The position numbers were made by a program, and so were the translations under genes. The notes below the pieces were generated by a model. It had not been told where the DNA came from, made no database searches, and was given only the letters and a program-made list of their open reading frames with translations. Of a stretch of DNA of 64,000 nt, positions 6,529 through 59,917 are shown piece by piece. This DNA comes from a virus. The stretch covers positions 267,571 to 331,570 of the IMG/VR virus record IMGVR_UViG_3300017917_001123; one strand, 5' to 3'. Position 1 is the stretch's first letter; each line of letters starts with the position of its first letter.

Positions 6529-6609
6529 TTGTAAATGTAAGGATCCATTTTACGCAGTTTCTTTATTTGCTGTCTGCGTTTATACCATCTATACGGTGTT
6601 AGCAACCAA

Positions 6610-12069: not shown

Positions 12070-12866
12070 TTGACTAACTCCATGAGCTTTGGTAACTTAT
12101 CTAGCAAGTCGAATTTATTCATGTAGTGTATGTCTTGCCCTTGCGTTTTAACAAGCGTTTCTCCACACATTAGGACTGTCAGTGTTTGATCTTTAACCTG
12201 TAGAATCTCATCTTTGTCTGTAAAGATTATAGGACTTGGTAAGGCAGTATAAAACTTATCAAGACCAAACCCGCCCATAGTATGACAAGCAACACTAAAT
12301 GCGTAATCGTTTCTAAATCTTCTTGTATCGAACTTATAGAGTGCGCCGTAGTAACTCCAGTTTTCTCTAACATGGTCAACAAGTTCAAACAGGGCTTTAA
12401 CTTCAGGTGTCTTGTTAAAAATAATGTTTGTAGCCCAGAGCATAGGAATACTAGCAGGGTCTAGCATTAGTGCGCCTAGTGAATTGCCCAGCATGTCGTT
12501 CATACCTTCGCAAATCATAAAGTCTCTATCTGCTTCTAAGTAAGGCTTCAAGCAACTGCTTTGAACTAAGAAATCGCTGTCAATCACTAGTGTTCTGTCA
12601 TAAGGGCTTAGTTCGTATGCCGAACTTCTGTTGGTGTTCTTAAACGAAATGGTCTTACCGGCAAGTGTTCTAGTATTGTCTGTTTCCACAGTAGTAACAA
12701 TCAGTCCATCAAATACGCCCACATCTGTTGCGTCCAAGGTCTTGCTGTCTGTAACAAGCGTGACAGGAATGTTAAGATGTTTCTTAACAAGGCCTGCGGC
12801 TAAAACAGCTTGAGGGCCGTATGCTATGTCGCCATCAAAGGCGAAAATGACGCACCCTGTTGTCAT
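12066..12866 (-). CDS. hypothetical protein with DxD motif (glycosyltransferase-like)
   Basis: 'LVIDSDFLVQS' DxD-type motif. Start overlaps the previous gene's stop (ATGA). Confidence 0.4.
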   Translation of the reverse strand: MTTGCVIFAFDGDIAYGPQAVLAAGLVKKHLNIPVTLVTDSKTLDATDVGVFDGLIVTTVETDNTRTLAGKTISFKNTNRSSAYELSPYDRTLVIDSDFLVQSSCLKPYLEADRDFMICEGMNDMLGNSLGALMLDPASIPMLWATNIIFNKTPEVKALFELVDHVRENWSYYGALYKFDTRRFRNDYAFSVACHTMGGFGLDKFYTALPSPIIFTDKDEILQVKDQTLTVLMCGETLVKTQGQDIHYMNKFDLLDKLPKLMELVK

Positions 12867-13204
12867 AGGTCCACCAGTTTGGCTGCGGTTCGTTTTTGTT
12901 TGATTTGACTGTAGTCTGTCATGTATCTGTTTGTTACTTCAAAATACACACCTACAATCTTGTTGAAGAAATCCTGTAGGTTTTCAATTTCTACAGGATA
13001 TTCGTTGTCGTCTAAGATAACGGCAGATTCATAATCTTTAATTGAACTGATAAAACCAATCAGTTCTCTGCCTACAGTGAAAATGCCTCCGTTGTGTGCG
13101 ATAACAAGTTCAGCAAGTGCTTTGTCTTTTAAGCGTTGTCTTTCTATTCCTAGTGTCTGTCTATAGTTTGCGTGTTCGATTGCTTGTTTAAGCCGATCAT
13201 CCAT
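12863..13204 (-). CDS. hypothetical protein
   Basis: 113-aa ORF, translationally coupled (ATGA overlap). Confidence 0.4.
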   Translation of the reverse strand: MDDRLKQAIEHANYRQTLGIERQRLKDKALAELVIAHNGGIFTVGRELIGFISSIKDYESAVILDDNEYPVEIENLQDFFNKIVGVYFEVTNRYMTDYSQIKQKRTAAKLVDL

Positions 13205-13213
13205 GTGTGCCTC

Positions 13214-14095
13214 TTAGTAGTTGTTTGGTTTTGTCTGTGAATAAGGATAGTAGATTGCTACGTTATGATATATGTTACCATTAACATAGTCCGGACCGCC
13301 TGCGATGCCCGGGTGATCATCGACATAATACACGGTCATAGTAATAGCAGTTCTTTGTTTAACGTCTGTGTTATTATGCCACAGATATATTTGTACATAG
13401 TTTGCTGTATAAGGACTTTCTGGACTATAAATTCTAAATGCTTCGTTAGCGCCTGTGTTTGATGTTCCATAAACACCACCTGATCCCCAGCTGTTGTAGA
13501 ATGTTCCGCCCCAGGCTGCGCCCGATTGGAACATCCCCGTACGAGTCAGAACAATAGTTCCCATGTTTGCTAGCAAGTTTGACCATGTTGCGTTTTGGCT
13601 AGTGCCGTCGCCCCCTGATCGACTTCCTGTAAATTGTAGTCTGCCACCGCCATTCCAGAAACCCCTGTATGCGGCATTGTCTGCCCAAGTAACTGACACA
13701 GATCCTAATGGAGTTAATACTCCGTTCCATGCTCCGCCATACCCATATGACGGGCCAGCAACATAAGCTAGCTGACCTGTACTGATAGCACCCCTATTAG
13801 AGTAAGCAGTATCAACACGAGCAGAGATTGTTGACAAATCAGTTGAAGTAATAATCGCCGTATCGGCTCTTGTTGTAAGGTCTGAGTTAGCACCTGTTTG
13901 TAATAGGTATGCTTTGTTAACGTCGGCTCTTAGATTGTTCCATTGAACACCGGTAATTTTTTCATTATCGGCTACCGTTGCCGCAGAGTAAGTTGTGTTA
14001 TAGCCAAGATCGTTAGTAGTACCATCTGGTGTGCTTAACACACTACGCATTTTAAGAATAACTGGGTTCCAGTCTTCGTTTTGAATGATTGCCAT
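13214..14095 (-). CDS. hypothetical beta-rich protein, paralog A
   Basis: 293 aa, Gly/Ser/Thr/Asn/Tyr/Trp-rich. Shares 'DLGYN', 'RxDxAY(S/A)xR' and 'SGGxGxSQxxSW(T/S)N' blocks with the adjacent gene. Confidence 0.5.
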   Translation of the reverse strand: MAIIQNEDWNPVILKMRSVLSTPDGTTNDLGYNTTYSAATVADNEKITGVQWNNLRADVNKAYLLQTGANSDLTTRADTAIITSTDLSTISARVDTAYSNRGAISTGQLAYVAGPSYGYGGAWNGVLTPLGSVSVTWADNAAYRGFWNGGGRLQFTGSRSGGDGTSQNATWSNLLANMGTIVLTRTGMFQSGAAWGGTFYNSWGSGGVYGTSNTGANEAFRIYSPESPYTANYVQIYLWHNNTDVKQRTAITMTVYYVDDHPGIAGGPDYVNGNIYHNVAIYYPYSQTKPNNY

Positions 14096-14099
14096 AATT

Positions 14100-14999
14100 T
14101 TATCCTAATGTAGATCCTAGCTGTGTAGCTGTTGGTGTTTTATTATACGAGTAATATGTGTTAACAGAAAAACCTAATGTGCCGTCGACTAGGTCTGGAC
14201 CTTGCCCTGTTGCTACGTGTGGGTCTAGTAATACATATTCGATCTCAAAACCTGTTGCAGTAAGAACATTATTACCGCCATATGGTCTAATATAAATGGT
14301 AAAGCTATTAGAAGTGTAGTTTGCGTCACTGGCAAGTATTCTAAAAGCAATACCAGCGTTTACACCAGTTTGTCCATTCTGTAACAAATTATATAGCCCG
14401 CCGTTTGGAAAACTACCGTTACGTGATTGATTTTGTTGAATGGCAGAGTTACCACTGAATACTAAAATTCCAATAGCCTGGAAGATATTAGTCCAGGAAG
14501 AAGTTTGACTTGAACCACTACCTCCTGTCATTGATCCGCCAATGGTAATAAATCCGCCTAAGTTAGCCCACCCACGAAACTCTGCGTTTGATCCCCAATC
14601 GAATCTTACTTTATATTTGTGCTCGGTCTTCCATGTGGAACCGTTAACATAATTATCTGATGTTGTAATTTGTAATTTTCCAACACCGGCAGTAGTTCTG
14701 CTAGCATAGGCAATGTCAACTTTTGCTGATACTTCTGTTAAGTCGTCTGTTTCGATTAACTGACTTCTGTTGTAGATAGCTAGTCCAGTAGACAATCCTG
14801 TTTGATGTTCAATTGCTAGGTTAACGTCTTGAATTACTAGGTTAAGGTCTTGTCCAACAACTTTGGCGCCTTGGACGGCAGGCAAACTAGCAACAGCTAG
14901 GTTGTATCCGAGGTCGAACACCGTGCCGCTAGGTGATCCGATAATTGATGCTATTTTGTTCTGTACTAAATTGAACGCTTCGTCCGTTACTTTTGCCAT
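14100..14999 (-). CDS. hypothetical beta-rich protein, paralog B
   Basis: 299 aa. Collinear similarity to 13214..14095 ('FDLGYN', 'AKVDIAYASR', 'GGSGSSQTSSWTN'). Confidence 0.5.
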   Translation of the reverse strand: MAKVTDEAFNLVQNKIASIIGSPSGTVFDLGYNLAVASLPAVQGAKVVGQDLNLVIQDVNLAIEHQTGLSTGLAIYNRSQLIETDDLTEVSAKVDIAYASRTTAGVGKLQITTSDNYVNGSTWKTEHKYKVRFDWGSNAEFRGWANLGGFITIGGSMTGGSGSSQTSSWTNIFQAIGILVFSGNSAIQQNQSRNGSFPNGGLYNLLQNGQTGVNAGIAFRILASDANYTSNSFTIYIRPYGGNNVLTATGFEIEYVLLDPHVATGQGPDLVDGTLGFSVNTYYSYNKTPTATQLGSTLG

Positions 15000-15010
15000 C
15001 AGTTGCTCCG

Positions 15011-15331
15011 TTATACCCTAAACGACTCGCCGCATCCGCAACGATCTCTTTCATTAGGGTTCTTAAATTCAAATCCTTCGTTTAGCCCGTTCCTTACATA
15101 ATCAACAGTTAGGCCATCTACATAAACATGGCTTTTGGGATCAACAAAAATGCTGAATCCGGTTTTTTCAAACACTAAATCGGAACTGTCGGGCTCGTCT
15201 ACATATTCTAACACATAAGCTAGCCCTGAACAGCCAGTAGTTTTAACGCCTATCCGAATGCCCATTCCTTTCCCTCTCTTTTGTAGGTTTAACAAGAATT
15301 TATTGTAGGCTTCAGTTGTTAAGTTGACCAT
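15011..15331 (-). CDS. Fe-S cluster assembly protein IscA/HesB/ErpA family
   Basis: 106 aa. 'GCSGLAY' and C-terminal 'CGCGESF' are the three conserved Cys of A-type carriers. Confidence 0.8.
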
Positions 15332-15353
15332 AAAGTGTTAAAATAAATATTAT
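15324..15353 (+). promoter_or_regulatory. sigma70-type promoter TTGACC-18-TATTAT (rightward, iscU)
   Basis: -35 at 15324-15329, -10 at 15348-15353. Overlaps a leftward promoter in the same AT-rich stretch. Confidence 0.35.
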
Positions 15354-15377
15354 ACGCATATTTAGCGAGTAAAGCAA
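15349..15377 (-). promoter_or_regulatory. sigma70-type promoter TTGCTT-17-TATAAT (leftward, minus-strand gene array)
   Basis: On the minus strand, TTGCTT (complement of 15372-15377), a 17-nt spacer, and TATAAT (complement of 15349-15354). Confidence 0.35.
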
Positions 15378-15397
15378 CGGCTTAAAAGGAGTCTGAT

Positions 15398-15796
15398 ATG
15401 GCATACAGCGAAAAGGTAATTGATCATTATGAAAACCCCAGAAATGTGGGTAGTTTTGATAAGTCTGATACTTCCGTTGGTACTGGTATGGTTGGTGCAC
15501 CTGCTTGCGGCGATGTTATGAAATTACAAATAAAGGTGGACGATGCTACAGGTATTATTACAGATGCGAAATTTAAAACGTATGGCTGTGGATCGGCTAT
15601 CGCAAGTTCGAGCCTTGTCACAGAGTGGGTCAAAGGAAAAACTCTTGACGAAGCCGGAGCAATCAAAAACAGCCAAATTGCCGAAGAATTAGCCCTTCCC
15701 CCGGTAAAGATTCACTGTTCAATTCTAGCAGAAGATGCTATCAAAGCCGCAGTAGCGGACTACAAGGAAAAACATGGAAGCAATAACAGTAACTGA
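15398..15796 (+). CDS. iscU: Fe-S cluster scaffold protein IscU/NifU-like
   Basis: '[13 protein letters not shown]', '[11 protein letters not shown]' and '[12 protein letters not shown]' are the three conserved Cys motifs of IscU. Confidence 0.85.
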
Positions 15797-16100
15797 TGCG
15801 GCTTATGACAAGATAATTGACGTACTTGCCGAAGAAAACAATCCTAATATTGCTCTTAGGGTATTTGTTCAGGGCGGCGGCTGTTCGGGCTTCCAATATG
15901 GTTTTACCCTAGACGAAGAACAAAACGAAGACGACTTTGTTATTGAAGGCAAAGTTAAGATTTTAGTTGACTCGATGAGCTACCAGTACCTTGTAGGTGC
16001 TACTATAGATTACAAAGATGAAATCTACGGTAGCCAATTTACTATTAAAAATCCCAACGCCCAATCAACTTGTGGCTGTGGCTCTAGTTTTTCCGTTTAA
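15774..16100 (+). CDS. Fe-S cluster assembly protein IscA/HesB family (second copy)
   Basis: '[11 protein letters not shown]' and C-terminal 'CGCGSSFSV'. Confidence 0.8.
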
Positions 16101-16108
16101 GGATATTA

Positions 16109-17359
16109 ATGAAGATAGCTATACTAGGTGTAGGTTCAGCAGGTTCTATTTCAATTGCCCAACTTTGTGCTCATGTTCCTAAAGGTTGTAAAGTAGTCAG
16201 CATACACGATCCATCAATTCCTATGTTTCAAATAGGCGAAAGTACAAATGCTAATATGGTATCTGTTCTTGAGCAAGCATGTCACTTTAGTTTCACTGAA
16301 GATCTTCCAGCAATGGAAAGTACAATCAAATTCGGTAATAAGTTTATGAAGTGGCGTGACCGAGATTGGTTCAACCCTTTGCTCGATGGTGGCATCGGAA
16401 TACATTTCAACAACTTTAAATTAAAAGAATTTGTAATCAGTCGAGTTAAAAAACATTGGCCTGATAAATTTGAAATGATAGAGGGAAACGTTTCTAATTT
16501 AGTGAACCATGGAACGTATGCCGACGTTGTAGTTGACGGACAGACCCATAGGTTTGATTGGGTAATTGATACACGAGGAACACCAACCAACTGGAGCGAA
16601 TACGAAATTGTAGACGGCATTTCGATTAATAGCGGAATTATTCATACAGTAAACGAGCCAGGAAACTTTCAATATACAGAACATCTAGCAACAGCAAATG
16701 GCTGGATGTTCGGAGTACCACTAACATCTCGTCATACTCACGGTTATCTCTTTAATGATAAAATTACTTCTAAAGAAGAAGCCATTGAAGATATGAAAAA
16801 ATATTTTGGCACAGACGATATTGGCCGTAAGAATGCTCCGGTACACTATCAATTTAAGAGTTACTTTGCTAAAAAAGTTCTAGAAGGTAGAGTCTTAAAG
16901 AACGGCAACAGGGCTAACTTCTTTGAACCAATTAGCGCCAGTGGAATATTCTACTATATCTATACAAACTATCTTCTAATTGATTTGTTTAAGAAAAGAC
17001 ACAACGAAGATGAACTAAATCAAAAATTTAGAGATTTCGGAAATCAGTTGGCAGATCTTATTTGTTTCTTTTATCACGGCGGAAGTACTTACGATACACC
17101 ATTTTGGAAATATGCCAAAGAAAACGCAAGACAGCGACTTTTTAGAAGTCCGTTTTTTAGAAAAGCGTTAATTGACTGTTTTGTCAAGGGCGAAGCAGGG
17201 TTACCACATTATGCTGACCCGTGGATCTTTAGTGGATATCATCTTCATTTAATCGATAAAAAGTTTGGATATAATTACTTCACAGATCCTGTAAAAAATC
17301 GGCAAGCAGTAGCAGAAATTGATGCCAACTTAAAGTCTCAAGGAAAAATAATATTATGA
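16109..17359 (+). CDS. flavin-dependent (tryptophan-type) halogenase-like protein
   Basis: N-terminal dinucleotide-binding 'IAILGVGSAGSI'. 'QIGESTNA' resembles the halogenase 'IGVGEAT' motif. 'ANGWMFGVPL' resembles the 'GWxWxIPL' motif. Confidence 0.5.
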   Translation: MKIAILGVGSAGSISIAQLCAHVPKGCKVVSIHDPSIPMFQIGESTNANMVSVLEQACHFSFTEDLPAMESTIKFGNKFMKWRDRDWFNPLLDGGIGIHFNNFKLKEFVISRVKKHWPDKFEMIEGNVSNLVNHGTYADVVVDGQTHRFDWVIDTRGTPTNWSEYEIVDGISINSGIIHTVNEPGNFQYTEHLATANGWMFGVPLTSRHTHGYLFNDKITSKEEAIEDMKKYFGTDDIGRKNAPVHYQFKSYFAKKVLEGRVLKNGNRANFFEPISASGIFYYIYTNYLLIDLFKKRHNEDELNQKFRDFGNQLADLICFFYHGGSTYDTPFWKYAKENARQRLFRSPFFRKALIDCFVKGEAGLPHYADPWIFSGYHLHLIDKKFGYNYFTDPVKNRQAVAEIDANLKSQGKIIL

Positions 17360-20523: not shown

Positions 20524-20739
20524 GTGGCAAAAGACGATTGTATCGTAATGTTCGGTACTGTTGAAGAAGTACTACCCAACGCAATGTTTCGCGTTAAGCT
20601 CGAAAGCGGACAATATGTTCTAGGACATATCTCTGGTAAGATGCGTCAAAACAGAATTCAAATTCTACTAGGTGATAATGTCAAAATTGAAATGAGTCCA
20701 TATGATTTGTCTAAGGGACGAATAGTTTATAGACAATGA
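20524..20739 (+). CDS. infA: translation initiation factor IF-1
   Basis: 71 aa, GTG start. '[60 protein letters not shown]' is near-identical in pattern to bacterial IF-1 ('...HISGKMRKNYIRILTGDKV...[12 protein letters not shown]'). Confidence 0.85.
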
Positions 20740-49820: not shown

Positions 49821-50522
49821 ATGGATGTTAAACTTGTTTCCTACAGTCAACCAACTGGAGAATTTAAAAACATGGGTCTCGAAGATGCGCAGGATCTCAT
49901 CGCGTATTGTGCCCGTGTGTCAAACCCAGCTAACCAATTCAACAACGAGACAGCAGAAAAGCTCATCAAGTATCTCGTTAAACACGCACACTGGAGCCCA
50001 CTCGAAATGGTGTCAGCCTGCTGTGAAATCACAACCACACGTGACATTGCCCGACAGATTCTACGTCACAGAAGTTTCAGCTTCCAAGAGTTCTCCCAGC
50101 GATATGCTGATCCTACAGCAGAGCTTGACGAAGCGTTTGTTATACGTGAGGCAAGACTCCAGGACACAAAGAATCGACAGAACAGCATAGAAATTCCTAT
50201 GAACAGTCCTGAGAATCGTATGTTAGCCTACGAATGGGAACGTGCTCAGAAACGTGTGCTACACGCAGTTAAAGATTCATATCGTTGGGCTATCGAAAAC
50301 GGTATTGCTAAAGAACAGGCTCGTGCCGTCCTTCCAGAGGGACTAACAATTAGTCGTATGTATATGAACGGAACACTTCGTAGTTGGATTCACTTTATTC
50401 AATTGCGTAGTGGCAACGGCACACAAAAAGAGCACATGGAAGTTGCTCGTGCTTGCGCCAAAGTAATCGCAGAAATCTTCCCAATGGCACAGGACTATGT
50501 CGAACCTAGCCAAGGGGCGTAA
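49821..50522 (+). CDS. thyX: flavin-dependent thymidylate synthase
   Basis: ThyX signature 'RHRSFSFQEFSQRY' (RHRx7S). Confidence 0.85.
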   Translation: MDVKLVSYSQPTGEFKNMGLEDAQDLIAYCARVSNPANQFNNETAEKLIKYLVKHAHWSPLEMVSACCEITTTRDIARQILRHRSFSFQEFSQRYADPTAELDEAFVIREARLQDTKNRQNSIEIPMNSPENRMLAYEWERAQKRVLHAVKDSYRWAIENGIAKEQARAVLPEGLTISRMYMNGTLRSWIHFIQLRSGNGTQKEHMEVARACAKVIAEIFPMAQDYVEPSQGA

Positions 50523-50964
50523 TAGCTACGATTCGACCTCCACTGGAGGTCTTATTGCGTTTTTTAATAAAAACGTAACTCCTTATGCGACTGAGGCAGG
50601 CGGACCTAAGTTTGACCTAGTTCCGGTTACAAAACAAAAAGACATAATGCTAAACAATGCTAGGCATTTTGCTAGGCAAGAATATAATCGCATTATGGAA
50701 CTAGTTGCTGTATTAGAAAAACAAGCACAGGATATTAAACGAAGGTTGGACATTACAGATGCTGTCCATGCCGCAGAGTATCAATTTCAACTATCAGTGG
50801 GTCATGCTTATTGGTTAGTTTGGGATAAACGTAAGGAAAAAACTTTGCTGGTTCATATGGGTCCGACTGAATGGACTACAGGTGTTCCGGTAGATTATGA
50901 TTATATAACACAAGTTCGGTTCCTTGGAGACCATACTTGGGAAGAAATTACAGAAGAGGAATAA
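50497..50964 (+). CDS. hypothetical protein
   Basis: 155-aa ORF. Confidence 0.4.
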   Translation: MSNLAKGRNSYDSTSTGGLIAFFNKNVTPYATEAGGPKFDLVPVTKQKDIMLNNARHFARQEYNRIMELVAVLEKQAQDIKRRLDITDAVHAAEYQFQLSVGHAYWLVWDKRKEKTLLVHMGPTEWTTGVPVDYDYITQVRFLGDHTWEEITEEE

Positions 50965-50965
50965 T

Positions 50966-51256
50966 ATGTTAATTAGTAAACCATACACAGTAGGTGATGT
51001 AGTAAGTATTAAGTTAGTCAATGGTGACGAGCTTATCGCAAAACTTGAAGCAGATGACACTGATACAATCACTGTTAGTCGTCCGCTAGCAATTACAATG
51101 AGTGCTCAAGGCATGGGTTTAATTCCTTGGGTATTTTTAGGCGAAGACGGCAAAATTACTTTGCGTAAAAAACATACATTCTTTGTTGTTACAAGTAAGA
51201 AAGAAGCCGCACAGCAATACATAGAAGGAACCACTGGTATTGCTCTAGTTAAATAA
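50966..51256 (+). CDS. hypothetical protein
   Basis: An in-frame ATG immediately after the upstream stop (TAATATG) is preferred over the longer 50924 start. Confidence 0.4.
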   Translation: MLISKPYTVGDVVSIKLVNGDELIAKLEADDTDTITVSRPLAITMSAQGMGLIPWVFLGEDGKITLRKKHTFFVVTSKKEAAQQYIEGTTGIALVK

Positions 51257-51260
51257 CAGT

Positions 51261-52301
51261 ATGGCACAACAGCATATATTGATCCCCGGAACGCTGACGT
51301 TCGATTTAACAGCCCCGTTTACACAACAGGGGATCTATAATGCTATCCGTACTGCCTATGCTCCTAGCCCTGAATATACAGTTGTCAGTGTAGCAGTTCC
51401 GTTTGTTTACATTAACTGCTTAGATGTTGGCGTTATTGACCCAGTAGGAATGTTCAAAGATGCGGCCCTTAAGTTATACAACTATCTGATGCAATACTAC
51501 ATACAACCAATATGGAATGCTCTGTATTCGTTGTACGAAGCATTAAAAGGATTCGGGCTAGCAATTTTAGATATAACTATTCCTATCCTCGGTTTAACTC
51601 TAGCAGATTTATTTGACCCTAACCTTTTTGAAAAGATTAAATTAAAAGTCTTAGAATGGTATTATTCAGCAAAAGACAAGCTGATTGAACTATTAAACTT
51701 TTTAGGAATCAAGTGGCCTATTACATTTAATGTTTCTTCTCCACAGTTTGAAATTGACTATATCATTAATGCTATTCTTAATAGCCTTTGGAGTTTTATC
51801 TTAAGATTAGTAAAGCAGGTAATCGCATTAATCAAACAAGGGTTAAGATTATGGGAACTAGCAACACAGCAAGGTAGAATTGTTTGGAGCCAAATCTGGG
51901 ATAATCTAGTAGACAGTATATTAGGGGCTATTCTAGGTTTCTTAACAAACGTACCCACCATTCAAGAAATCTGGGATGCTCTAGTTGCCTTTGCTAAAAG
52001 TGTGTACAATAAGGCTGTGGTTACTATTGAAGAAATTTTAGCAGTAATCAAGGATTTTAAATTCTTTGGGTTAAAACCATTTGACTGGGACCTTCCTTGG
52101 AATCTTAAGGTAAACTTTCCAGAAGTTGATCTAATGCGTATGCTAAACTCAATGCTAGTTTGGTTTAAAAATTTCTTATTTTCCATCATCAAACAATTTG
52201 TAGATGCCATAGCAGATATTCTAAACTATTTTGGAATTAATTTGGCAAACTTATTAACCATAAACATACCAATTACGTTCTGTGCGGTAAAAAACGAATA
52301 A
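51261..52301 (+). CDS. hypothetical protein (hydrophobic, Leu/Ile-rich)
   Basis: 346-aa ORF. Confidence 0.4.
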   Translation: MAQQHILIPGTLTFDLTAPFTQQGIYNAIRTAYAPSPEYTVVSVAVPFVYINCLDVGVIDPVGMFKDAALKLYNYLMQYYIQPIWNALYSLYEALKGFGLAILDITIPILGLTLADLFDPNLFEKIKLKVLEWYYSAKDKLIELLNFLGIKWPITFNVSSPQFEIDYIINAILNSLWSFILRLVKQVIALIKQGLRLWELATQQGRIVWSQIWDNLVDSILGAILGFLTNVPTIQEIWDALVAFAKSVYNKAVVTIEEILAVIKDFKFFGLKPFDWDLPWNLKVNFPEVDLMRMLNSMLVWFKNFLFSIIKQFVDAIADILNYFGINLANLLTINIPITFCAVKNE

Positions 52302-52363
52302 GTAATATTATCCGTTGAGCGTACTTGCGTAGCGAGTTTAGTAGTGGTTTGGCGAGGGCTTTC

Positions 52364-52392
52364 TTGACGGGCTCGTCAACTTGTTTTATAAT
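52364..52392 (+). promoter_or_regulatory. sigma70-type promoter TTGACG-17-TATAAT driving the tmRNA precursor
   Basis: -35 at 52364-52369, -10 at 52387-52392. Confidence 0.55.
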
Positions 52393-52469
52393 ATATAAAC
52401 TTTGAAAGGACTACATCATGGCATATAGAGCTAAAAATGGTAGCGTAAAGGCAGCGGCACGTAGAGCAT

Positions 52470-52557
52470 TACGTCGTCGACAGAAATAATTTTATTGCTG
52501 TATGAAGCAAACCCAAAAGGGTTCTGGACGCGGGTTCGACTCCCGCCAGGTCCACCA
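52470..52557 (+). ncRNA. ssrA: tmRNA acceptor piece (3' tRNA-like half, ends CCA) of a permuted two-piece ssrA; 5' boundary approximate
   Basis: T-arm 'GCGGG-TTCGACT-CCCGC' (52530-52546), 3' acceptor strand 'CAGGTCC' + A + CCA (52547-52557). No matching 5' acceptor strand upstream, so this is not a tRNA. Confidence 0.65.
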
Positions 52558-52645
52558 AAAGAGGATTGTATGAACGAAGAAGTAACTAAATGGATGCTGG
52601 GCGTGGGCCTAGTTCTTTTAATGTTCTTTTTAGTCCTTTTTTGAT

Positions 52646-52839
52646 GGGCCTGTACTGGATTTCGACAGGGTCAAGAGTAGGCGAGTGGACAGCACGGTAG
52701 GCGATGACCGTAAATCAAGCAAAACAAAATAGACGCAAACGATGAAGTTTACGCATTGGCGGCCTAATAACGGCTTCCTAGGGTAGGAAATACCTCGTAA
52801 CAGAAAATACCAAAAGGCTCTTCGGAGCCTTTTTCTTTG
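52646..52839 (+). ncRNA. ssrA: tmRNA coding piece (5' acceptor strand, tag reading frame ANDEVYALAA, terminator)
   Basis: 5' 'GGGCCTGTACTGGATTTCGACAGGG' matches the tmRNA 5' consensus (E. coli GGGGCUGAUUCUGGAUUCGACGGG). GGGCCUG pairs with CAGGUCC of the upstream piece. 'UAG-AC-GCA AAC GAU GAA GUU UAC GCA UUG GCG GCC UAA UAA' at 52730-52770 parallels the E. coli resume region and tag. Confidence 0.75.
52813..52839 (+). terminator. rho-independent terminator of the tmRNA transcript
   Basis: AGGCTC-ttcg-GAGCCT followed by TTTTTCTTT. Confidence 0.65.
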
Positions 52840-52853
52840 AGTCAAAAAATGTC

Positions 52854-52882
52854 TTGACTCTTCAGTGAAAACACTATATAAT
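52854..52882 (+). promoter_or_regulatory. sigma70-type promoter TTGACT-17-TATAAT with overlapping palindrome
   Basis: -35 at 52854-52859, -10 at 52877-52882. A 7-bp inverted repeat gagtcaa-N8-ttgactc (52839-52860) overlaps the -35. Confidence 0.5.
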
Positions 52883-52959
52883 ATTCTAAGCTGTGTTGTT
52901 TATCTAAGTGTTACACATAACGAAATGGCACACAGTTAATACATAAAGGAAATTTAAAA

Positions 52960-53424
52960 ATGAGAAAATTCGCAATCGCATCAATCTTGGCTTTGGCCGC
53001 AGTTTCAGCTTCGGCTGTAGAACTTGGCGTTACCGCAACACGTGGTGACACCACAGGTGATACTCGCAACTACGCAGGTGTTACCCTTGGTCAAAGTTTT
53101 GGCAAGCTAAATGCAACTGCTGGCTTTGAGCGTTCAACTGTTGGCGCACAGGGCAATCAGAACCGCTGGAGCTTGGTTGGTGGATACGACATTGCCAAGG
53201 TTGGTCCAGTTACTTTTACTCCTAAACTTGGTTATGCTTACTTAGACAATCAGACTCCGGGTGTTGCCAGCGGCAATGCTTATACAGTTGGTCTAGGCGC
53301 ATCATACGCTCTCACTAAGCAAGTTAGCCTTACCGCAGACTATGCTTATCAAAAGGCCTTTGAAACAAAGGTTGAGCAGTTTGATGGCAACCGAGTTACA
53401 TTGGGTGCTAAGTACCGCTTCTAA
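52960..53424 (+). CDS. small outer-membrane beta-barrel protein (OmpX/Ail/OmpA-like OMP)
   Basis: Signal peptide 'MRKFAIASILALAAVSASAVE', alternating amphipathic beta-strands, and a C-terminal aromatic 'YRF' terminal signature. Confidence 0.6.
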   Translation: MRKFAIASILALAAVSASAVELGVTATRGDTTGDTRNYAGVTLGQSFGKLNATAGFERSTVGAQGNQNRWSLVGGYDIAKVGPVTFTPKLGYAYLDNQTPGVASGNAYTVGLGASYALTKQVSLTADYAYQKAFETKVEQFDGNRVTLGAKYRF

Positions 53425-53442
53425 TTTTTAAATTAGATATCA

Positions 53443-53468
53443 AAGGGGGCTTAGGCCCCCTTTTTATT
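53443..53468 (+). terminator. rho-independent terminator
   Basis: AGGGGGC-ttag-GCCCCCT followed by TTTTTAT. Confidence 0.7.
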
Positions 53469-53479
53469 AGGAACAAGTT

Positions 53480-53725
53480 ATGGGCAATCAAACAGACTAC
53501 TTTAATAAAATTGGATACAAGCCTACCTACTTCATTGGGGATAGAGTTTTCGGCCACTGGAATAAAATTCCCTTTGTTGGAACTGTTGGCAACGATACAC
53601 TTATTAATCACGAAGAAGGACCTAGAATCAGCGTCCATGTAGATCTGCCAATTAAATACAAGGACACTATAAAGAGTGTTATAATTGTAAAACACAAAGA
53701 CATTAAACTATTAAAGGAGATTTAA
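53480..53725 (+). CDS. hypothetical protein
   Basis: 81-aa ORF. Confidence 0.4.
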   Translation: MGNQTDYFNKIGYKPTYFIGDRVFGHWNKIPFVGTVGNDTLINHEEGPRISVHVDLPIKYKDTIKSVIIVKHKDIKLLKEI

Positions 53726-53783
53726 AATGTCGTAGATTGAATATGCGTGTAAAGATATTGTTTTCCACTTTAACAAAAAGCAC

Positions 53784-54302
53784 TTGGAAGACCAGACCAT
53801 TCCCATGTGGGTCTTAAAATTTCATGGCGAAACCCTGTATGTAAATCACGTTGATTGTAGTGTTCCCTGGAGCACAAAAGAGACGCCCGATAACAGCCAT
53901 ACTAAAGGTAGCATCAAAGTTAAAGACGTATTGTTACGTGTTGACAACGAAAACTGTGCTACAATTTCCCAACTAACTCTAATTGACAAGTATAGACTTC
54001 GTAACCAGAAGCTAGGCATCACACGAATTATGTTTAGTCCTGGTACTGCTTTTCACAAGGCTTTACAGAATAACGAATTTAAACATAGTCCGTTTAAGAC
54101 TATTCGTGGCGCCTGTGCTAGTACGTTTATTATCTGTGATCTTTTAAACAAAGCAGATGTAACCATGGCAGGACTGAAGTACACAAGTCAGTTTAGAATT
54201 GTCAAACCAAACGAGGGCTACTTCCAACAGTACGACGAAATCAAAGGGGATAACATTCCTGTAGATTATGGACACCCAAGTACTCCTTACGAGTACAGCT
54301 AA
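53784..54302 (+). CDS. hypothetical protein (start uncertain: TTG at 53784 or ATG at 53805)
   Basis: 172-aa ORF. Confidence 0.4.
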   Translation: MEDQTIPMWVLKFHGETLYVNHVDCSVPWSTKETPDNSHTKGSIKVKDVLLRVDNENCATISQLTLIDKYRLRNQKLGITRIMFSPGTAFHKALQNNEFKHSPFKTIRGACASTFIICDLLNKADVTMAGLKYTSQFRIVKPNEGYFQQYDEIKGDNIPVDYGHPSTPYEYS

Positions 54303-55074
54303 GGTTGTAAATACTCTCATGGACTTTGAGAGAGTATTTTGTTTTGGTTGTAGTTGGACCCATTATCGTTGGCCAACTTGGGCAGACATGTGCCGATACG
54401 GAACGGACAAACCAGTTTATAATTGGGGACTCCGTGGTATCGGCAATGTTGGCATTTTACATAGAATGTTAGAAGCTGATCTTAAACATCAGTTCACAGA
54501 CCGAGACCTGATACTAGTTCAATGGACAACATGGACACGAGAAGATAGGTACTTTGATAAGTGGCAAGCAGGCGGCGCAGTTTTTAATAATAATTTCTAC
54601 GACAAAGCCTTTGTTAACAAGTACTGGAGTTGGAACAACGACATAATAAAAAATGCCACAGCAATTATTACAGCAAATCGCATGTTCAAAATTGCCTATC
54701 AATATACGTTCCATCCGTTTCCTGTAAGCCCGGATTTTGACTATACAGACTCTTTAACAAAACAAGAAATTCTATCCTTTTATAGAACAAATCTTCCTGC
54801 GGTGCCTGTATTTCCGCAGAACCTAAACACAGACTTTGGCAAGAATTGTTTAGACGGACACGCAGATATTAACGCACATCTAAAGTTCTTTGATCAAAAC
54901 ATAAAACCCTTGGGCTTTGACCTAAAGGACAACCATCTAAGACTAGCAGTCCTACACGATTCTATCTCGCAACAGCTAGACAAAAAACAATCGCATAATC
55001 AACAATGGGCAGTTATCAAAGAGCTTGTTCACAAGTTTGATAAAACCATTGACGGTCCTACTCTAGGATTCTAA
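54268..55074 (+). CDS. hypothetical protein
   Basis: 268-aa ORF. Confidence 0.4.
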   Translation: MDTQVLLTSTAKVVNTLMDFERVFCFGCSWTHYRWPTWADMCRYGTDKPVYNWGLRGIGNVGILHRMLEADLKHQFTDRDLILVQWTTWTREDRYFDKWQAGGAVFNNNFYDKAFVNKYWSWNNDIIKNATAIITANRMFKIAYQYTFHPFPVSPDFDYTDSLTKQEILSFYRTNLPAVPVFPQNLNTDFGKNCLDGHADINAHLKFFDQNIKPLGFDLKDNHLRLAVLHDSISQQLDKKQSHNQQWAVIKELVHKFDKTIDGPTLGF

Positions 55075-56970: not shown

Positions 56971-59148
56971 ATGCAACTTTTGAACGCTGTCCAAAACGAA
57001 GCTATTTTGAGCAACGTTGGCGAAATTGGTGAGTTTCGTATCCGCAACTCTGCCAAAGCCTTTAACATCTTGTCCAGCGGTTTGTACGCAAACAAGATTA
57101 AGGCAATCGTTCGCGAATTGAGCTGTAACGCAGTTGACTCGCATACTGCCGCTGGTAAGTCAGACGTTCCGTTTGATGTTCATCTTCCTTCACAATTCGA
57201 ACCTTGGTTTGCTATTCGCGACTACGGTACTGGACTAAGCCATGAACAAGTTACTAACATCTATACGACTTATTTTGAGTCCACTAAGACTGCTTCAAAT
57301 GATTTCATTGGTGCTTTGGGTCTTGGCTCTAAGTCTCCTTTCAGCTACACTGACAATTTCACCGTAACCGCTATCCAAAACGGTCGCAAGGGTATCTACT
57401 CTGCTTTCATTAACGAAGCAGGTGTGCCTAGCATCGCATTGATGATGGAAGAAGCTACAGACGAAGCTAACGGTGTTGAAGTTAAGTTCTCTGTGAACGA
57501 ACGCTGGGACTTTGACAAGTTCCGCCAAGAAGCTCGTTCAGTCTACAAGTGGTTCAAGCAACAGCCCAATGTTATCGGTGTCAGCGACTTCAAGATCGAA
57601 GAAGTTGACTACGAAGACATGAACATTGTTCCTGGAGTTCACAGCCGTCAGCGCGGTTACGGCCATTCGGTTGCCGTTATGGGTAATATTGCTTACCCTA
57701 TCGAAATTCCTAACGCTGACCAAAGCCTCGGTGCTCTGCGTAAACTGTTGAGCTGTGGTCTTGTTATGGAGTTCAAAATTGGTGAACTGGACTTCCAAGC
57801 AAGCCGCGAAGGTTTGAGCTACATTCCTCAGACCATCGCTAGCATTAAGGCTAAGTTGGAAGAACTGAACGGTGCTTTGGCCGGAAAGTTGGCTGAAGAA
57901 GCAGATGCTATTACTAACCAGTGGGAAAAGGCTTTGTTCCTGTCCACTCGTGCTGATAAGGATCTGTGGTCTGCGGCTACTCGTAAGTACATCGCTGACA
58001 CTAAGTTTGAGCTGATCGAAGATCGTTCTGGCTATCTGCGTACTAAGGCATTTGGTCTTAAGACTGAAGATCTCCAAAAGGACTACAACATTATCCTTCG
58101 TGGCTTTAGCAAAGGTCGCGGATCTGTTACTTGTTCTAACATGACTGCTGGTCGTGAATACGACTATCACAAAAAGGACGCTAACGGTCATTCGCTGTCT
58201 TGGACTGAGTGGCGCATGAGCATCAGCAACGGTGTTCAGTTTGTTGTAAACGATACCAAAGTTGGTGCTACCGAACGTGCTAAGAACCACTGGCGCAAGT
58301 GTAAGCAGGACGACCTGCCGCACCAAAGCCATGTGTATGTTGTCGAGCCGTTTGACCGCACTAAGCCGATGAAGACCAAGGAGTTTTTTGAGTTGATCAA
58401 GAATCCTCCGGAGTGCCAAATCCGTTTGGCAAGCTCGCTGATTGAGAAGGAACGTGCCCAAGGTACTAGCCTGAAGAACGTTACTATCCTTAAGCTGGCT
58501 CCTCGTGGCTACGGCGGTTACTATCGTGAACGTGAAATGGTTTGGAAGGACGCAGGTAAGGCTGATCAGTTTGATCAGACCAAAACTTACTACTACATTC
58601 CGTTGAGCGGTTTCGAAATGAACAGTTCTTGTGGTTACACTTCTGGTAAAGAATTGTGGACTGAACTCAAAGAAAGTAAGATGGGTGTTTGCCCAGAAAC
58701 TATCTACGGTGTTCGCAAGTCGGACATTGAGTTTATCCGTACACAAGCTAACTGGGTTAATTTGGAAAAGCATATCAAGGAAACTTTGGAAAAAGTAACC
58801 GAACAAGATATGGTGAAATTTGCTGTTAGCCTACTTGACAATTCCAATGTTGCCAAGTACAATAGTAGCATTGTAAACGGTATTTCAAACCCGAATAGCC
58901 CTTACGTGGTCTTTGTGAATAAACTCAAGGACGTCCAAGCAGAGAGCTTTAACGAACATTACGTCAAGCGTCTGTTTAGTCGTTTCAAGATTCAAGCGCA
59001 CGACCCGTCTGCTATCGCTGAGAAGTTCCGTAAGGAATGTAACGATGTTATCAGTCGTTATCCGTTGATCGACTACGTGCCTAGTAGTAAAGCTACCCAA
59101 GCCCTGGTTGATTACATTAATATGGTTGACACACAGAAAGGTGTTTAA
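56971..59148 (+). CDS. rIIA: rIIA protein (membrane-associated, GHKL-ATPase-like N-terminus)
   Basis: '[30 protein letters not shown]' and '[27 protein letters not shown]' closely match T4 rIIA ('[30 protein letters not shown]', '[27 protein letters not shown]'). Confidence 0.85.
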   Translation: [725 protein letters not shown]

Positions 59149-59149
59149 A

Positions 59150-59917
59150 ATGAGCTATCCGTTTTTGATTCAAGGTAAGAACATTGTTGTCGTTATCGGC
59201 AATAACAGTCATACCATCAGTTCTACTCATATCAGCTATGAGAAGATCAAAGAGGCTATTAAGGCCAACGATTGGGATACTGTAAAGGATCTCATTGAGC
59301 CTCGTAAGGTTGTGCTGAACTACGGTGCTGGTAACATCGCTATCCAAGGTGATAAGATGTTCTGGAAGGGCACCGAGTTCCATAACACTTTGGCCGCCCG
59401 CATTGTTGAGATGTACCAAGAAGGCTTCCCGATTGAGCCAATGGTTAACTTCATGGAAAACTTGATGACTAACCCTAGTAAGCGAGCCGTCGATGAACTG
59501 TACAAGTTCCTCGAAAAGGGTAACCTGCCGATTACTTCGGACGGTCACTTCCTGGCTTACAAGAAAGTCCGTGAAGACTATTTGGACTGCCACAGTGGTA
59601 CTATGGACAATAGTGTCGGTAAGATTGTCGAAATGGAACGTAACCAAGTCGATGACGACAAGAATAACACTTGTTCTACCGGTCTCCACTTCTGTAGCAA
59701 GGAGTACTTGAACCACTTTGGTGGAGCTCGTACTATGATCCTTAAGATCAACCCTCGCGATGTAGTTTCTATTCCTAGCGACTACAATGCAACCAAGGGT
59801 CGTGCTTGCCGCTACGAAGTGGTTGGCGAAGTTGGTGTTTCGGTTGAAGAAGCAGAAGCGGCATTCACTGCTCCTGTCCAAGACTGGAATGTCAATAACC
59901 CGAGTGACATGGAATGA
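59150..59917 (+). CDS. rIIB: rIIB protein
   Basis: 'FMENLMTNPSKRAVDELYKFL...DGHFLAYKKVREDYLDCHSGTMDNSVGKIVEM...TCSTGLHFCSKEY...INPRDVVSIPSDYN' parallels T4 rIIB ('FLENLLENPSQKAVSRLFDFL...DGYFYAWKVVRSNYFDCHSNTFDNSPGKVVKM...TCSRGLHVCSKSY...VHPRDVVSIPIDYN'). Start taken at the ATG right after the rIIA stop. Confidence 0.8.
   Translation: MSYPFLIQGKNIVVVIGNNSHTISSTHISYEKIKEAIKANDWDTVKDLIEPRKVVLNYGAGNIAIQGDKMFWKGTEFHNTLAARIVEMYQEGFPIEPMVNFMENLMTNPSKRAVDELYKFLEKGNLPITSDGHFLAYKKVREDYLDCHSGTMDNSVGKIVEMERNQVDDDKNNTCSTGLHFCSKEYLNHFGGARTMILKINPRDVVSIPSDYNATKGRACRYEVVGEVGVSVEEAEAAFTAPVQDWNVNNPSDME

Follow-up and report, generated by a model that had tools for sequence, protein, structure and literature searches.

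Is the small transcription unit found in a stretch of viral DNA really the gene of a two-piece tmRNA, what else does this unit encode, and does the permuted form of the gene disclose the identity of the host? The window analysed, i.e. the whole stretch of 64,000 nucleotides, belongs to a large virulent phage endowed with rIIA, rIIB, nrdA/B, thyX, ligase and tail-fibre proteins; infA and a tRNA with a CUA anticodon, described as a suppressor tRNA in the preliminary description, are also present. A megablast comparison of 24 kb of the window with 50,697 phage records yielded no match and the closest relatives are metagenomic, the protein identity in the neighbouring gene being 78% and 49%. In these relatives the synteny, a gene for a 346-aa protein followed by the tmRNA, is kept.

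ARAGORN called a permuted tmRNA at 52465-52858, with the tag ANDEVYALAA followed by two stops, and the window scored above the curated gathering thresholds of two Rfam models, RF01850 (beta_tmRNA; 152.6 bits, E 6e-47, threshold 84 bits) and RF04321 (tmRNA_permuted; 132.8 bits, E 9e-26, threshold 47 bits), so that both types of search proposed at the outset for checking the tmRNA assignment gave a positive answer. The gene order is circularly permuted, the 3′ tRNA-like half with its CCA (ending at 52557) lying upstream of the 5′ half with the tag (starting at G52646). The elements listed in the preliminary description were all found in place, namely the canonical tmRNA 5′ end at 52646, the frame for the tag and a double stop (52735-52770) in an E. 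coli-like UAG-NN-GCA context, the T-arm and the acceptor strand CAGGUCC-A-CCA located upstream (52530-52557), a distance between CCA and coding piece given as ~90 nt and amounting to 88 nt, a 7/7 acceptor pairing with one G-U, a strong intrinsic terminator after the tag and a dedicated TTGACG-17-TATAAT promoter (Table 1). The only G-U of the acceptor stem is the alanine identity pair G3:U70 (52648:52551).

ARAGORN, the two Rfam models, the covariation reported below and the conserved synteny agree in establishing the identity, structure and conservation of a permuted two-piece tmRNA. The assignment of the locus, as read from its sequence, to a phage-encoded, circularly permuted two-piece tmRNA having the acceptor piece first and the tag ANDEVYALAA is fully supported. 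The gene lies among phage hallmark genes, has its own promoter and terminator and retains its synteny; because its carrier is a phage and not a betaproteobacterial genome, the tmRNA is structurally beta-type yet not a betaproteobacterial gene. Very probably, the locus represents a functional phage-encoded permuted ssrA of the “beta-type” two-piece family, placed within a small early operon.

Table 1. Elements of the tmRNA unit and their positions in the window (IVS, intervening sequence)
Feature	Position	Strand	Details
Sigma-70-type promoter	52364-52392	+	TTGACG 52364-52369, 17-nt spacer, TATAAT 52387-52392
ORF23, 23-aa highly basic peptide	52418-52489	+	MAYRAKNGSVKAAARRALRRRQK; RBS-like AAAGGA 52405-52410
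tmRNA acceptor piece	52496-52557	+	62 nt; 92% identity to relative L135
P2 strands of acceptor piece	52496-52501, 52520-52526	+	
T-arm	52530-52546	+	GCGGG-UUCGACU-CCCGC
Acceptor 3′ strand	52547-52553	+	CAGGUCC; discriminator A 52554; encoded CCA 52555-52557
IVS	52558-52645	+	88 nt; not in the predicted mature RNA
ORF24, candidate 24-aa hydrophobic peptide	52570-52644	+	MNEEVTKWMLGVGLVLLMFFLVLF; inside IVS
tmRNA coding piece	52646-52838	+	~190 nt; 5′ end GGGCCUGUACUGGAUUUCGACAGGG at 52646
Acceptor 5′ strand	52646-52652	+	GGGCCUG; D-loop analogue next
P2 strands of coding piece	52666-52672, 52689-52694	+	
PK1	52695-52720	+	
Resume codon	52735-52737	+	GCA; context AAUAGAC-GCA
Tag ORF	52735-52764	+	GCA AAC GAU GAA GUU UAC GCA UUG GCG GCC = ANDEVYALAA
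Stops	52765-52770	+	UAA UAA
P5 hairpin	52761-52775	+	stops in loop
Further hairpin	52781-52795	+	followed by conserved UCGUAACAGAAA, then terminator
Intrinsic terminator = 3′ end of coding piece	52812-52838	+	hairpin 52812-52833, AAAAGGCUC-UUCG-GAGCCUUUU, then U-tract

The secondary structure was subjected to a formal covariation test based on 23 diverse homologues, 500 shuffles and slid controls. In this test 99.6% of the cells are paired, as compared with 91.6% in the shuffles and 38–51% in the slid controls, and 12 pairs are changed on both sides as compared with 4.1 in the shuffles; neither value is matched by any of the 500 shuffles. The acceptor stem and the T-arm are paired in 100% of the cells, with two-sided changes at three acceptor pairs (compensatory changes of this stem occurring in L135 and in phage Marzo), and the G:U at 3:70 is invariant in 23/23 homologues. 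Two-sided changes are seen at 9 of the 13 P2 pairs, and the P2 pair 52520-52672 is UA, CG, GC or AU in 83 of 84 sequences. The covariation of PK1, judged by motif search and inspection without a formal shuffle control, is evident in stem 1 (CGGT/ACCG, CGAT/ATCG, CAGT/ACTG, GGGT/ACCC) as well as in stem 2, where GCG-A-NNN pairs with NNN-(C/A)GC through five triplet pairs (TGA/TCA, TGG/CCA, CTG/CAG, CGC/GCG, CTC/GAG); in the window stem 2 consists of just 2+3 bp. Compensatory changes among relatives are likewise seen in the P5 and 3′ hairpins.

A true pseudoknot follows the tag in some relatives; a second pseudoknot was considered also for the window and was rejected, a hairpin alone being found after the tag. 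PK2-4 are replaced by this single small hairpin, as is typical of two-piece forms. Folded alone, the coding piece is no better than its shuffles (z = +0.22). In view of its pairing in trans and of its pseudoknot this result was to be expected; it lends no support and, on the same grounds, was rejected as a test.

The precursor was analysed in the region where the two pieces meet. The segment 52547-52652 folds at −43.9 kcal/mol (z = −6.0), none of 200 shuffles being equally stable, and the IVS ends are joined in a 13-bp closing stem (52556-52568 paired with 52631-52643) that stacks onto the acceptor stem. Of 89 distinct related IVSs, 78 possess a closing stem of at least 6 uninterrupted bp, and a conserved UGAU stands directly 5′ of the mature G, the TGAT/TAAT junction being kept also in the isolated phages. 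Processing of the precursor is predicted to yield two RNAs held together by base pairing.

From these elements the following pathway can be envisaged. The host sigma-70 RNA polymerase would transcribe ~440 nt from promoter to terminator; in this precursor the two acceptor strands (52547-52553 and 52646-52652) would pair and the closing stem of the IVS would extend their helix. Host RNase P would cleave 5′ of G52646, whereas an endonucleolytic cut followed by exonuclease trimming would expose the encoded CCA at 52557, leaving the 62-nt acceptor piece and the ~190-nt coding piece held together by the 7-bp acceptor stem and the P2 helices. Charging by host AlaRS would rely on G3:U70 and on the discriminator A73, and host SmpB and EF-Tu would bring the phage tmRNA to ribosomes stalled on the truncated mRNAs that abound in infection. 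Translation would then resume at GCA 52735, append ANDEVYALAA and end at UAA UAA, so that the product would bear a degron of the proteobacterial ClpXP type. In addition to the tmRNA, the transcript would carry the gene of the 23-aa basic peptide upstream and probably that of the 24-aa membrane peptide in the IVS. Ribosome rescue and tagging represent a plausible role for the phage tmRNA. Pfam analysis of 20 ORFs of 120–200 aa and tblastn with an approximate E. coli SmpB query revealed no smpB in the window; therefore, function would depend on the acceptance of the phage tmRNA by host SmpB.

The promoter, which would drive the whole unit, matches the consensus at 11 of 12 positions and is the joint best in 50000-55000. 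In L135 an 18-nt insertion yields a new TTGACA, whose distance from an identical TATAAT is again exactly 17 nt, so that the promoter geometry has been kept through the indel. At the opposite end, the terminator hairpin is identical in L135, and the hairpins occupying the same place in other relatives differ in sequence with pairing kept.

The promoter does not adjoin the tmRNA, a 23-codon ORF being interposed, a point absent from the first reading. The end of this ORF23, stop codon included, is separated from the acceptor piece by 6 nt. In the comparison with L135 seven of its codons differ, 7 synonymously and 0 nonsynonymously, the differences being distributed 1/0/6 over the three codon positions; ORF23 is under coding constraint. 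Of 93 distinct related loci, 11 encode a comparable Arg/Lys-rich peptide upstream of their tmRNA (MAYRAKKNSPKATVRRVLRRRKG in L038, for example). Neither the ORF23 nor the ORF24 peptide has a meaningful match in Pfam, PHROG, NCBIfam or PDB. The basic peptide, the hydrophobic peptide and the Csp genes were considered as obligatory partners of the tmRNA, an idea rejected in view of their presence at 11, 32 and 27 of the 93 loci, respectively; this patchiness is compatible with shared ancestry. The nature of the companions, i.e., a basic peptide, a hydrophobic peptide and a CspA-like protein, suggests a translation- or RNA-oriented early module.

The IVS, too, is filled by an ORF of 24 codons that the first reading had not noted. 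Its SD sequence GAGGA (52561-52565) lies inside the closing stem, and 1 nt separates its UGA stop (52642-52644) from the RNase P site. That this stop evolved for the ORF was considered and rejected, since the TGAT-GGG junction is conserved in ORF-less IVSs, those of all isolated phages included; the IVS ORFs would thus exploit a pre-existing motif.

Is ORF24 translated? It might be argued that ORF24 and similar short IVS ORFs are untranslated, the “SD” being simply a purine-rich side of the closing stem, the UGA a part of the UGAU processing motif and the hydrophobicity a reflection of U-rich RNA. Indeed, the SD is buried in a 13-bp stem, junction and closing stem also occur where the IVS has no ORF (in all isolated phages checked, among others), an open frame of 24 codons would arise by chance at such composition with a probability of 0.17–0.20, just 2 of the 20 codons differing between window and L135 carry synonymous changes, and no family match was found for the peptide. 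On the other hand, an SD-like IVS head co-occurs with an ATG 4–9 nt downstream and a long ORF (31/7 vs 9/42, Fisher p = 1.5e-9; 22 distinct N-termini), and the L135 counterpart (MDDDLARFAMGIIAVIVIGAIVLF) retains SD, ATG, frame, 24-codon length and the pattern of polar head and hydrophobic tail at 53% nucleotide identity, the flanking tmRNA being 92% identical. Its substitutions are distributed 13/7/15 over the codon positions, position 2 being the least affected. Furthermore, other relatives encode similar peptides just upstream of the acceptor piece, and the ORF in the IVS of one relative encodes a genuine thioredoxin (PF00085, 75 bits), so that genes do occupy this position. While absence of translation is a serious possibility, about which we remain rather doubtful, the IVS probably encodes a 24-aa membrane peptide. 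A tiny membrane peptide, apparently encoded here in the spacer between the two tmRNA pieces, is not described in the literature searched. We attribute something approaching an even chance to the broader proposal that the IVS is a gene-carrying cassette, the tmRNA precursor doubling as mRNA, and that together with the 23-aa basic leader it defines a small “tmRNA operon”, of which no description was found in the papers searched. If this were the case, with the SD of ORF24 locked in the closing stem and its stop 1 nt away from the cleavage by RNase P, the spacer, once excised, would amount to a minimal mRNA made up of SD, ORF and stop; ORF24 translation and tmRNA maturation would compete or be coupled.

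As to the origin of the tmRNA, the preliminary description had taken the permuted form as an indication that the host belongs to a clade having two-piece tmRNA. A recent capture from such a host could account for the best Rfam match being the betaproteobacterial two-piece model and for the resemblance of ANDEVYALAA to beta/gamma-proteobacterial tags. However, 7 of 7 further isolated phages checked, infecting Pseudomonas, Xanthomonas, Stenotrophomonas and Alcaligenes, possess the beta-type permuted gene, mostly unannotated, and at least the first three of these host genera, which are gammaproteobacterial, have a one-piece tmRNA. The exact 32-nt acceptor end is found on at least 108 viral contigs, always in permuted genes, whereas 185,579 species genomes contain 11 occurrences (in Bacteroidota, Opitutaceae and Geobacteraceae MAGs), 10 of which were called standard one-piece tmRNA and one received no call; none belongs to a permuted bacterial gene. 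The possibility that the 119 viral-contig matches represent the ends of prophages adjoining a tmRNA of the host was rejected, every match with enough downstream sequence being a complete permuted gene. Synteny kept at 49% protein identity argues for a long residence in the phage lineage. Recent host capture is thus unlikely and the claim concerning the host clade is contradicted: judging from these comparisons, the permuted form is the mark of a phage-borne lineage, because the 32-nt end is common to permuted viral genes and absent from permuted bacterial ones, and not of a two-piece-tmRNA host. A different role, that of a decoy titrating SmpB or AlaRS and inhibiting host trans-translation, has a precedent in the TLD-only tmRNA of mycobacteriophage DS6A, such a molecule inhibiting tmRNA in E. 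coli (PMC4131195, PMC11915505), and would fit the lack of smpB among the genes searched in the window. It is very unlikely, since nothing is missing from the mRNA-like domain, which is conserved and has an E. coli-like resume context, an intact 10-codon tag, a YALAA degron and a double stop, since PK1 and P5 covary and since selection acts on the tags throughout the family; the relatives keep the tag frame with differing tags, nearly all of which terminate in an (A/M/I)AA degron of the proteobacterial type. Least probable is a decaying relic devoid of current function, for which nothing specific speaks, although the distant relative L121 seems to have lost P2/PK1, and which is at variance with the integrity of all defining elements in the window, with compensatory changes relative to both close and distant relatives and with the conservation of promoter and terminator.

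The phage-borne tmRNA of the window adds one more well-supported case to a known but scarcely studied phenomenon, namely phages that supply their own ribosome-rescue RNA. The two-piece tmRNA itself does not represent a novel type of element, phage examples having already been published or annotated; what emerges is that one beta-type permuted lineage is widespread among phages of unrelated morphotypes and hosts, mostly unannotated in GenBank, so that the permuted form cannot be used for host inference. Within this lineage, a large uncultivated sub-clade including the window has coding cargo in the removed segment, ranging from 19–26-aa membrane peptides to thioredoxin. If translated, this cargo would offer a compact natural case of a single transcript that is at once structured RNA precursor and mRNA, and a handle on the competition between processing and translation.

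Among the known systems, the betaproteobacterial two-piece tmRNA of RF01850/RF04321 shares with the window the order acceptor piece → IVS → coding piece, the tRNA-like domain with G3:U70, P2, PK1, resume context and tag, the 3′ terminator hairpin and the loss of PK2-4. It differs insofar as the window gene is carried by a phage, its T-arm and acceptor sequence depart from the RF01850 consensus, part of its P2 region and the post-tag hairpin misfit that model (mismatch marks), and its IVS and leader bear ORFs. With the one-piece SsrA of E. coli (RF00023; tag ANDENYALAA instead of ANDEVYALAA) the logic of the tag, the double UAA stop and G3:U70 are shared, and the resume context of the latter, AAUAGUC-GCA, is nearly identical to that of the window; unlike the window, E. 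coli has a single continuous, unpermuted RNA with four pseudoknots, encoded in the chromosome by a gene without internal ORFs.

Closer counterparts are found in phages. The GenBank records of the Stenotrophomonas Menderavirus (Marzo, Bhz51, Yut2/3) annotate a tmRNA/ssrA of the same type, which is phage-borne, beta-type and permuted, with the same TLD architecture, a PK1 having the GCG-A-NNN motif and the TGAT-GGG junction, and is located near nrd genes in a phage of roughly 160 kb. Its acceptor piece, however, is only ~80% identical, its tag is (VA)ANDDSYTVRIAA, and it lies inside a tRNA cluster, with a short IVS, no SD-led ORF noted and no basic-peptide leader. A two-piece tmRNA was published in 2022 for the T4-like OM43 phage Melnitz, in a study that counted tmRNA in 402 out of 18,146 phage genomes, the two-piece form accounting for 53 (PMC9004378). 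Together with the Menderavirus annotations, these data make it an overstatement that a tmRNA is unusual in a T4-like phage, as initially held. Melnitz and the pelagimyophages resemble the window in being T4-like with a two-piece tmRNA; they are marine myophages in which the tmRNA is downstream of an early promoter, near thyX, and the function proposed is the same, i.e., either maintaining the activity of the hijacked translation apparatus or tagging proteins (PMC9004378). Unlike that of the window, the Melnitz tmRNA is reported to be alphaproteobacterial-type and associated with a glutamine riboswitch, with no IVS ORFs reported (PMC9004378); around the window tmRNA neither a glutamine riboswitch nor another relevant Rfam family was found at E ≤ 1. 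Finally, some tmRNA genes are interrupted by group I introns with homing-endonuclease ORFs (PMC11915505), and these share with the window a protein-coding ORF in a segment absent from the mature tmRNA. In that case a self-splicing intron, located in the T-loop and bearing a mobility gene, constitutes the segment, whereas in the window the segment is the IVS of a permuted gene, presumably removed by tRNA-processing enzymes, and the cargo would consist of small peptides or host-like proteins.

The preliminary description of a phage-encoded, circularly permuted two-piece tmRNA is correct and the finding is real. Reading of the segment 52200–53000 bears out the 5′ end of the coding piece, GGGCCUGUACUGGAUUUCGACAGGG, and the resume context AAUAGAC-GCA, the tag with its double stop, the terminator and the promoter are likewise found as described (see the table), with the T-arm and the acceptor 3′ strand CAGGUCC-A-CCA placed upstream, 88 nt separating the CCA end (52557) from the coding piece. 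The two acceptor strands pair 7/7, as claimed, their sole G-U being the G3:U70 alanine identity pair (52648:52551). Furthermore, ARAGORN independently calls a permuted tmRNA carrying this tag and both Rfam models match, beta_tmRNA with 152.6 bits (E 6e-47; cut-off 84) and tmRNA_permuted with 132.8 bits (cut-off 47), so that the description passes the covariance-model check that could have refuted it.

Positions of the features in the window and, where indicated, in related loci
Feature	Position	Strand	Remarks
Promoter TTGACG-17-TATAAT	52364-52392		score 11/12
Permuted tmRNA, ARAGORN call	52465-52858		
ORF23	52418-52489	+	MAYRAKNGSVKAAARRALRRRQK; between promoter and acceptor piece
Acceptor piece	52496-52557		
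T-arm	52530-52546		
Intervening sequence	52558-52645		
ORF24	52570-52644	+	MNEEVTKWMLGVGLVLLMFFLVLF; inside 88-nt intervening sequence
Terminator-like hairpin	52596-52613	+	GCUGGGC-GUGG-GCCUAGU, then U-rich tract
Coding piece	52646-52838		
Resume codon GCA	52735-52737		
Tag ANDEVYALAA	52735-52764		ten codons
UAA UAA	52765-52770		
Terminator hairpin	52812-52833		followed by U-tract
Outer-membrane beta-barrel protein	52960-53424		directly downstream of tmRNA
rIIA	56971-59148		
rIIB	59108-59917		
IF1 (infA)	20524-20736	+	TIGR00008, 110 bits, cut-off 61
tRNA, CUA anticodon	62231-62305	+	ARAGORN label 'Pyl'; Rfam tRNA 65 bits
Unusual auxiliary cluster	5053-17359		Nol-like carbamoyltransferase, radical-SAM, NifU/IscU-like, tryptophan-halogenase-like proteins
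NifU/IscU-like protein	15398-15796		PF01592, 187 bits
Tryptophan-halogenase-like protein	16109-17359		
Second basic-peptide gene	L135 3746-3820		MAKFRAHHPRSIKATARRILKKRK; between ORF23 and acceptor piece
tRNA, UUA anticodon	L142 985-1061		Alcaligenes phage vB_Af_QDWS595; ARAGORN 'tRNA-Stop'; Rfam tRNA 41.6 bits

At least 119 viral contigs of IMG/VR contain an exact copy of the 32-nt acceptor end, GGACGCGGGTTCGACTCCCGCCAGGTCCACCA, and the coding-piece 5′ end lies downstream in 108/108 listed contigs long enough to judge, all of which are therefore permuted; ARAGORN flags 99 of these 108, among the matches listed, as permuted (tmRNA*). The P2 pairs joining the two pieces covary in the 84 distinct spliced sequences among the matches listed, the pair 52520–52672 being UA in 36, CG in 32, GC in 7 and AU in 7. 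A formal covariation test was made on 23 diverse homologues, including the closest, metagenomic relative (L135) and the Stenotrophomonas phage Marzo, both of which deviate from the 32-nt search pattern in their acceptor sequences: 99.6% of the cells were paired, compared to 91.6% in shuffles and 38–51% in slid controls, and 12 pairs were changed on both sides, compared to 4.1 and ≤4, respectively, neither observed value being reached by any of 500 shuffles (0/500). Pseudoknot PK1 is supported, at the level of sequence comparison, by the covariation of stem 1 and by the variation of stem 2, whose motif GCG-A-NNN ... NNN-(C/A)GC is filled by TGA/TCA in the window and by TGG/CCA, CTG/CAG, CGC/GCG or CTC/GAG in relatives. 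Four elements follow the tag, namely the P5 hairpin, with the stop codons in its loop and compensatory variants in relatives, a second hairpin (GGGUA/UACCU in the window, GGGCA/UGCCU in the related locus L073, GGCA/UGCC in L135), the conserved UCGUAACAGAAA stretch and the terminator; a post-tag pseudoknot is real in some relatives, the window having the hairpin only. Many related permuted tmRNAs carry unusually long tags of 23–33 aa (e.g., ANADTFDFSAMSFTGNTVSGKSKVALAA and ANTKTGTVKVTMSKAAFLGRVAANDSAVLLAA; IMG/VR contigs L010–L012, L018, L020, L026, L029, L031, L032, L035, L039, L044, L053, L054, L057 and others), which are conserved from one contig to another and retain a terminal (L/I/V)AA-type degron.

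The permuted form had been taken to point to a host clade with two-piece tmRNA, a premise that fails since the phages bearing it (sipho-, podo-, myo- and jumbo-types) infect both Gamma- and Betaproteobacteria and the bacterial copies of the 32-mer are unpermuted. At least the gammaproteobacterial genera among those hosts use one-piece tmRNA. A search of one genome per species for 185,579 species found the 32-mer 11 times, in Saprospiraceae, Bacteroidota, Opitutaceae and Geobacteraceae MAGs, and none of these copies lies in a permuted gene, 10 being called as standard one-piece tmRNA and one having no call. In addition, relatives whose homologues of the upstream 346-aa protein are 78% and 49% identical to it have the tmRNA directly 3′ of that gene. 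This synteny and the lack of a permuted copy among the 11 led us to reject a recent capture from a host with two-piece tmRNA, the simplest reading being that these permuted tmRNA genes form a phage-borne lineage of long residence.

The structure and conservation of the tmRNA are documented by these comparisons, whereas we infer the steps of its mechanism. Early sigma-70 transcription would proceed from ~52399 to the terminator, the acceptor and closing helices folding in the precursor; RNase P would then cut 5′ of G52646 and 3′ trimming would yield the CCA at 52557, P1 and P2 holding the two pieces together. Alanylation would rely on G3:U70 and A73, and delivery on EF-Tu and the SmpB of the host, the latter being invoked because no smpB was found within the window. 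Translation would resume at GCA, add the tag and terminate at UAA UAA, the product being degraded by host ClpXP-type proteases. Host and phage nucleases produce truncated mRNAs in the course of infection, and with more tmRNA present ribosomes would remain available. That the phage tmRNA acts instead as a decoy is unlikely, because its mRNA-like domain is complete and conserved.

The tmRNA is part of an operon that also contains two small ORFs. Judged from its conservation, ORF23, encoding a 23-aa basic leader peptide without match to a known family, is a real gene: the peptide is identical in L135 despite seven differing codons, so that all changes are synonymous. Arg/Lys-rich peptides of this kind, at times in tandem, precede the tmRNA in 11/93 distinct related loci; L135 has a second such gene, a paralogue that occurs also in the loci L047 and L066 and is absent from the window. 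In 27/93 distinct loci a CspA-type cold-shock gene ends ~6 nt before the acceptor piece, and others have 22-aa hydrophobic peptides of the MKAYQFIVAVLIVIFVLIHVFM type in the same spot (ORFs directly 5′ of the acceptor piece occur, e.g., in L005, L010, L012, L022, L025 and L054). Whatever its kind, the pre-acceptor ORF has its stop codon at a near-fixed distance from the tmRNA.

The ends of the intervening sequence pair as a 13-bp closing stem that prolongs the acceptor helix, the segment 52547–52652 folding to −43.9 kcal/mol (z = −6.0), and 78/89 distinct related intervening sequences have a closing stem with 6 bp or more. The ATG of ORF24 is preceded 4 nt upstream by GAGGA and its UGA ends 1 nt short of G52646; the UGAU junction being general, ORF-less intervening sequences included, these ORFs use a pre-existing stop. 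Against translation of ORF24 speak the burial of its SD in the closing stem, the fast evolution of its peptide and the 17–20% chance of an open frame of this length in such composition. On the other hand, SD, ATG, frame, 24-codon length and the polar-head/hydrophobic-tail pattern are kept in L135 at a nucleotide identity of 53% (92% for the acceptor piece), changes in ORF24-type comparisons are fewest at codon position 2, and an SD-like head is associated with an ATG-led ORF (31/7 vs 9/42, Fisher p = 1.5e-9, 22 different N-termini). On balance, these patterns tilt the case somewhat towards ORF24 being translated. That real genes occur at this site is further supported by a true thioredoxin gene (PF00085, 75 bits; complete, 84 aa, WCGPC), SD-led and with its stop 1 nt before the coding piece, inside a 268-nt intervening sequence of L050 and L121 (IMGVR_UViG_3300008262_005621 and one further contig); the coding piece of L121 appears to lack the P2/PK1 segment. 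SD-led ORFs like ORF24 are absent from the isolated phages checked, and would thus be cargo of an uncultivated sub-clade. In a 101-nt class (L004, L013, L018, L020, L076, L085, L115) an SD-led Cys-rich ORF, MKYTALCPSCF(N/I/S)RFSWVPGKGLTKHKCFSD..., has no stop at the junction and continues past the predicted RNase P site into the beginning of the tmRNA coding piece; once processed, it would be a non-stop mRNA. The terminator-like hairpin within ORF24, which if active would uncouple the two tmRNA pieces, is probably incidental.

The window (41% GC) belongs to a large virulent phage, encoding also nrdA, nrdB, thymidylate synthase, ATP-dependent DNA ligase, tail and tail-fibre proteins as well as several auxiliary genes; the beta-barrel gene indicates a Gram-negative host. 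The label "T4-like" is plausible, yet no T4 core structural and replication genes are seen within the 64 kb, and DNA-level comparison found no isolated phage close to the window. The presence of infA and of a suppressor tRNA had been noted correctly, the CUA-anticodon tRNA being an amber suppressor, and together with the tmRNA they form a gene set oriented to translation. TAG is the rarest stop in 55 long ORFs (TAA 40, TGA 12, TAG 3); the tag itself ends in UAA UAA.

The tmRNA had been deemed unusual for a T4-like phage; it belongs instead to a known kind and is not surprising in itself. Early one-piece phage tmRNAs were catalogued in PMC4131195, 79 unique phage sequences are given in PMC11915505, and PMC9004378 (2022) describes a two-piece tmRNA in the T4-like OM43 phage Melnitz and finds tmRNA genes in 402/18,146 phage genomes, ARAGORN classing 53 of them as two-piece. 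Moreover, the tmRNAs annotated in GenBank for Menderavirus are classed by ARAGORN and Rfam as permuted beta-type, like that of the window. Seven further isolated phages, whose match was confined to the acceptor end (Pseudomonas UF_RH6, Xanthomonas XacN1, BUDD and Rb1, Stenotrophomonas DLP_6 and QDWS359, Alcaligenes QDWS595; L138–L144), all have a permuted tmRNA (RF04321, 77–137 bits); no tmRNA feature is annotated in any of the stretches retrieved from these seven, and a "hypothetical protein" CDS overlies the RNA gene in UF_RH6, BUDD and QDWS359. The UUA tRNA of QDWS595, of ochre-suppressor type, lies directly against the 3′ end of the permuted tmRNA of this phage or overlaps it. As to intervening sequences, the literature searched mentions a tRNA gene and a repeat element only, and no report of a protein-coding one was found. 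What the present analysis adds to the known systems is thus evidence for a widespread, under-annotated, phage-borne lineage of permuted tmRNAs, a conserved leader peptide gene and a probable peptide gene within the intervening sequence.
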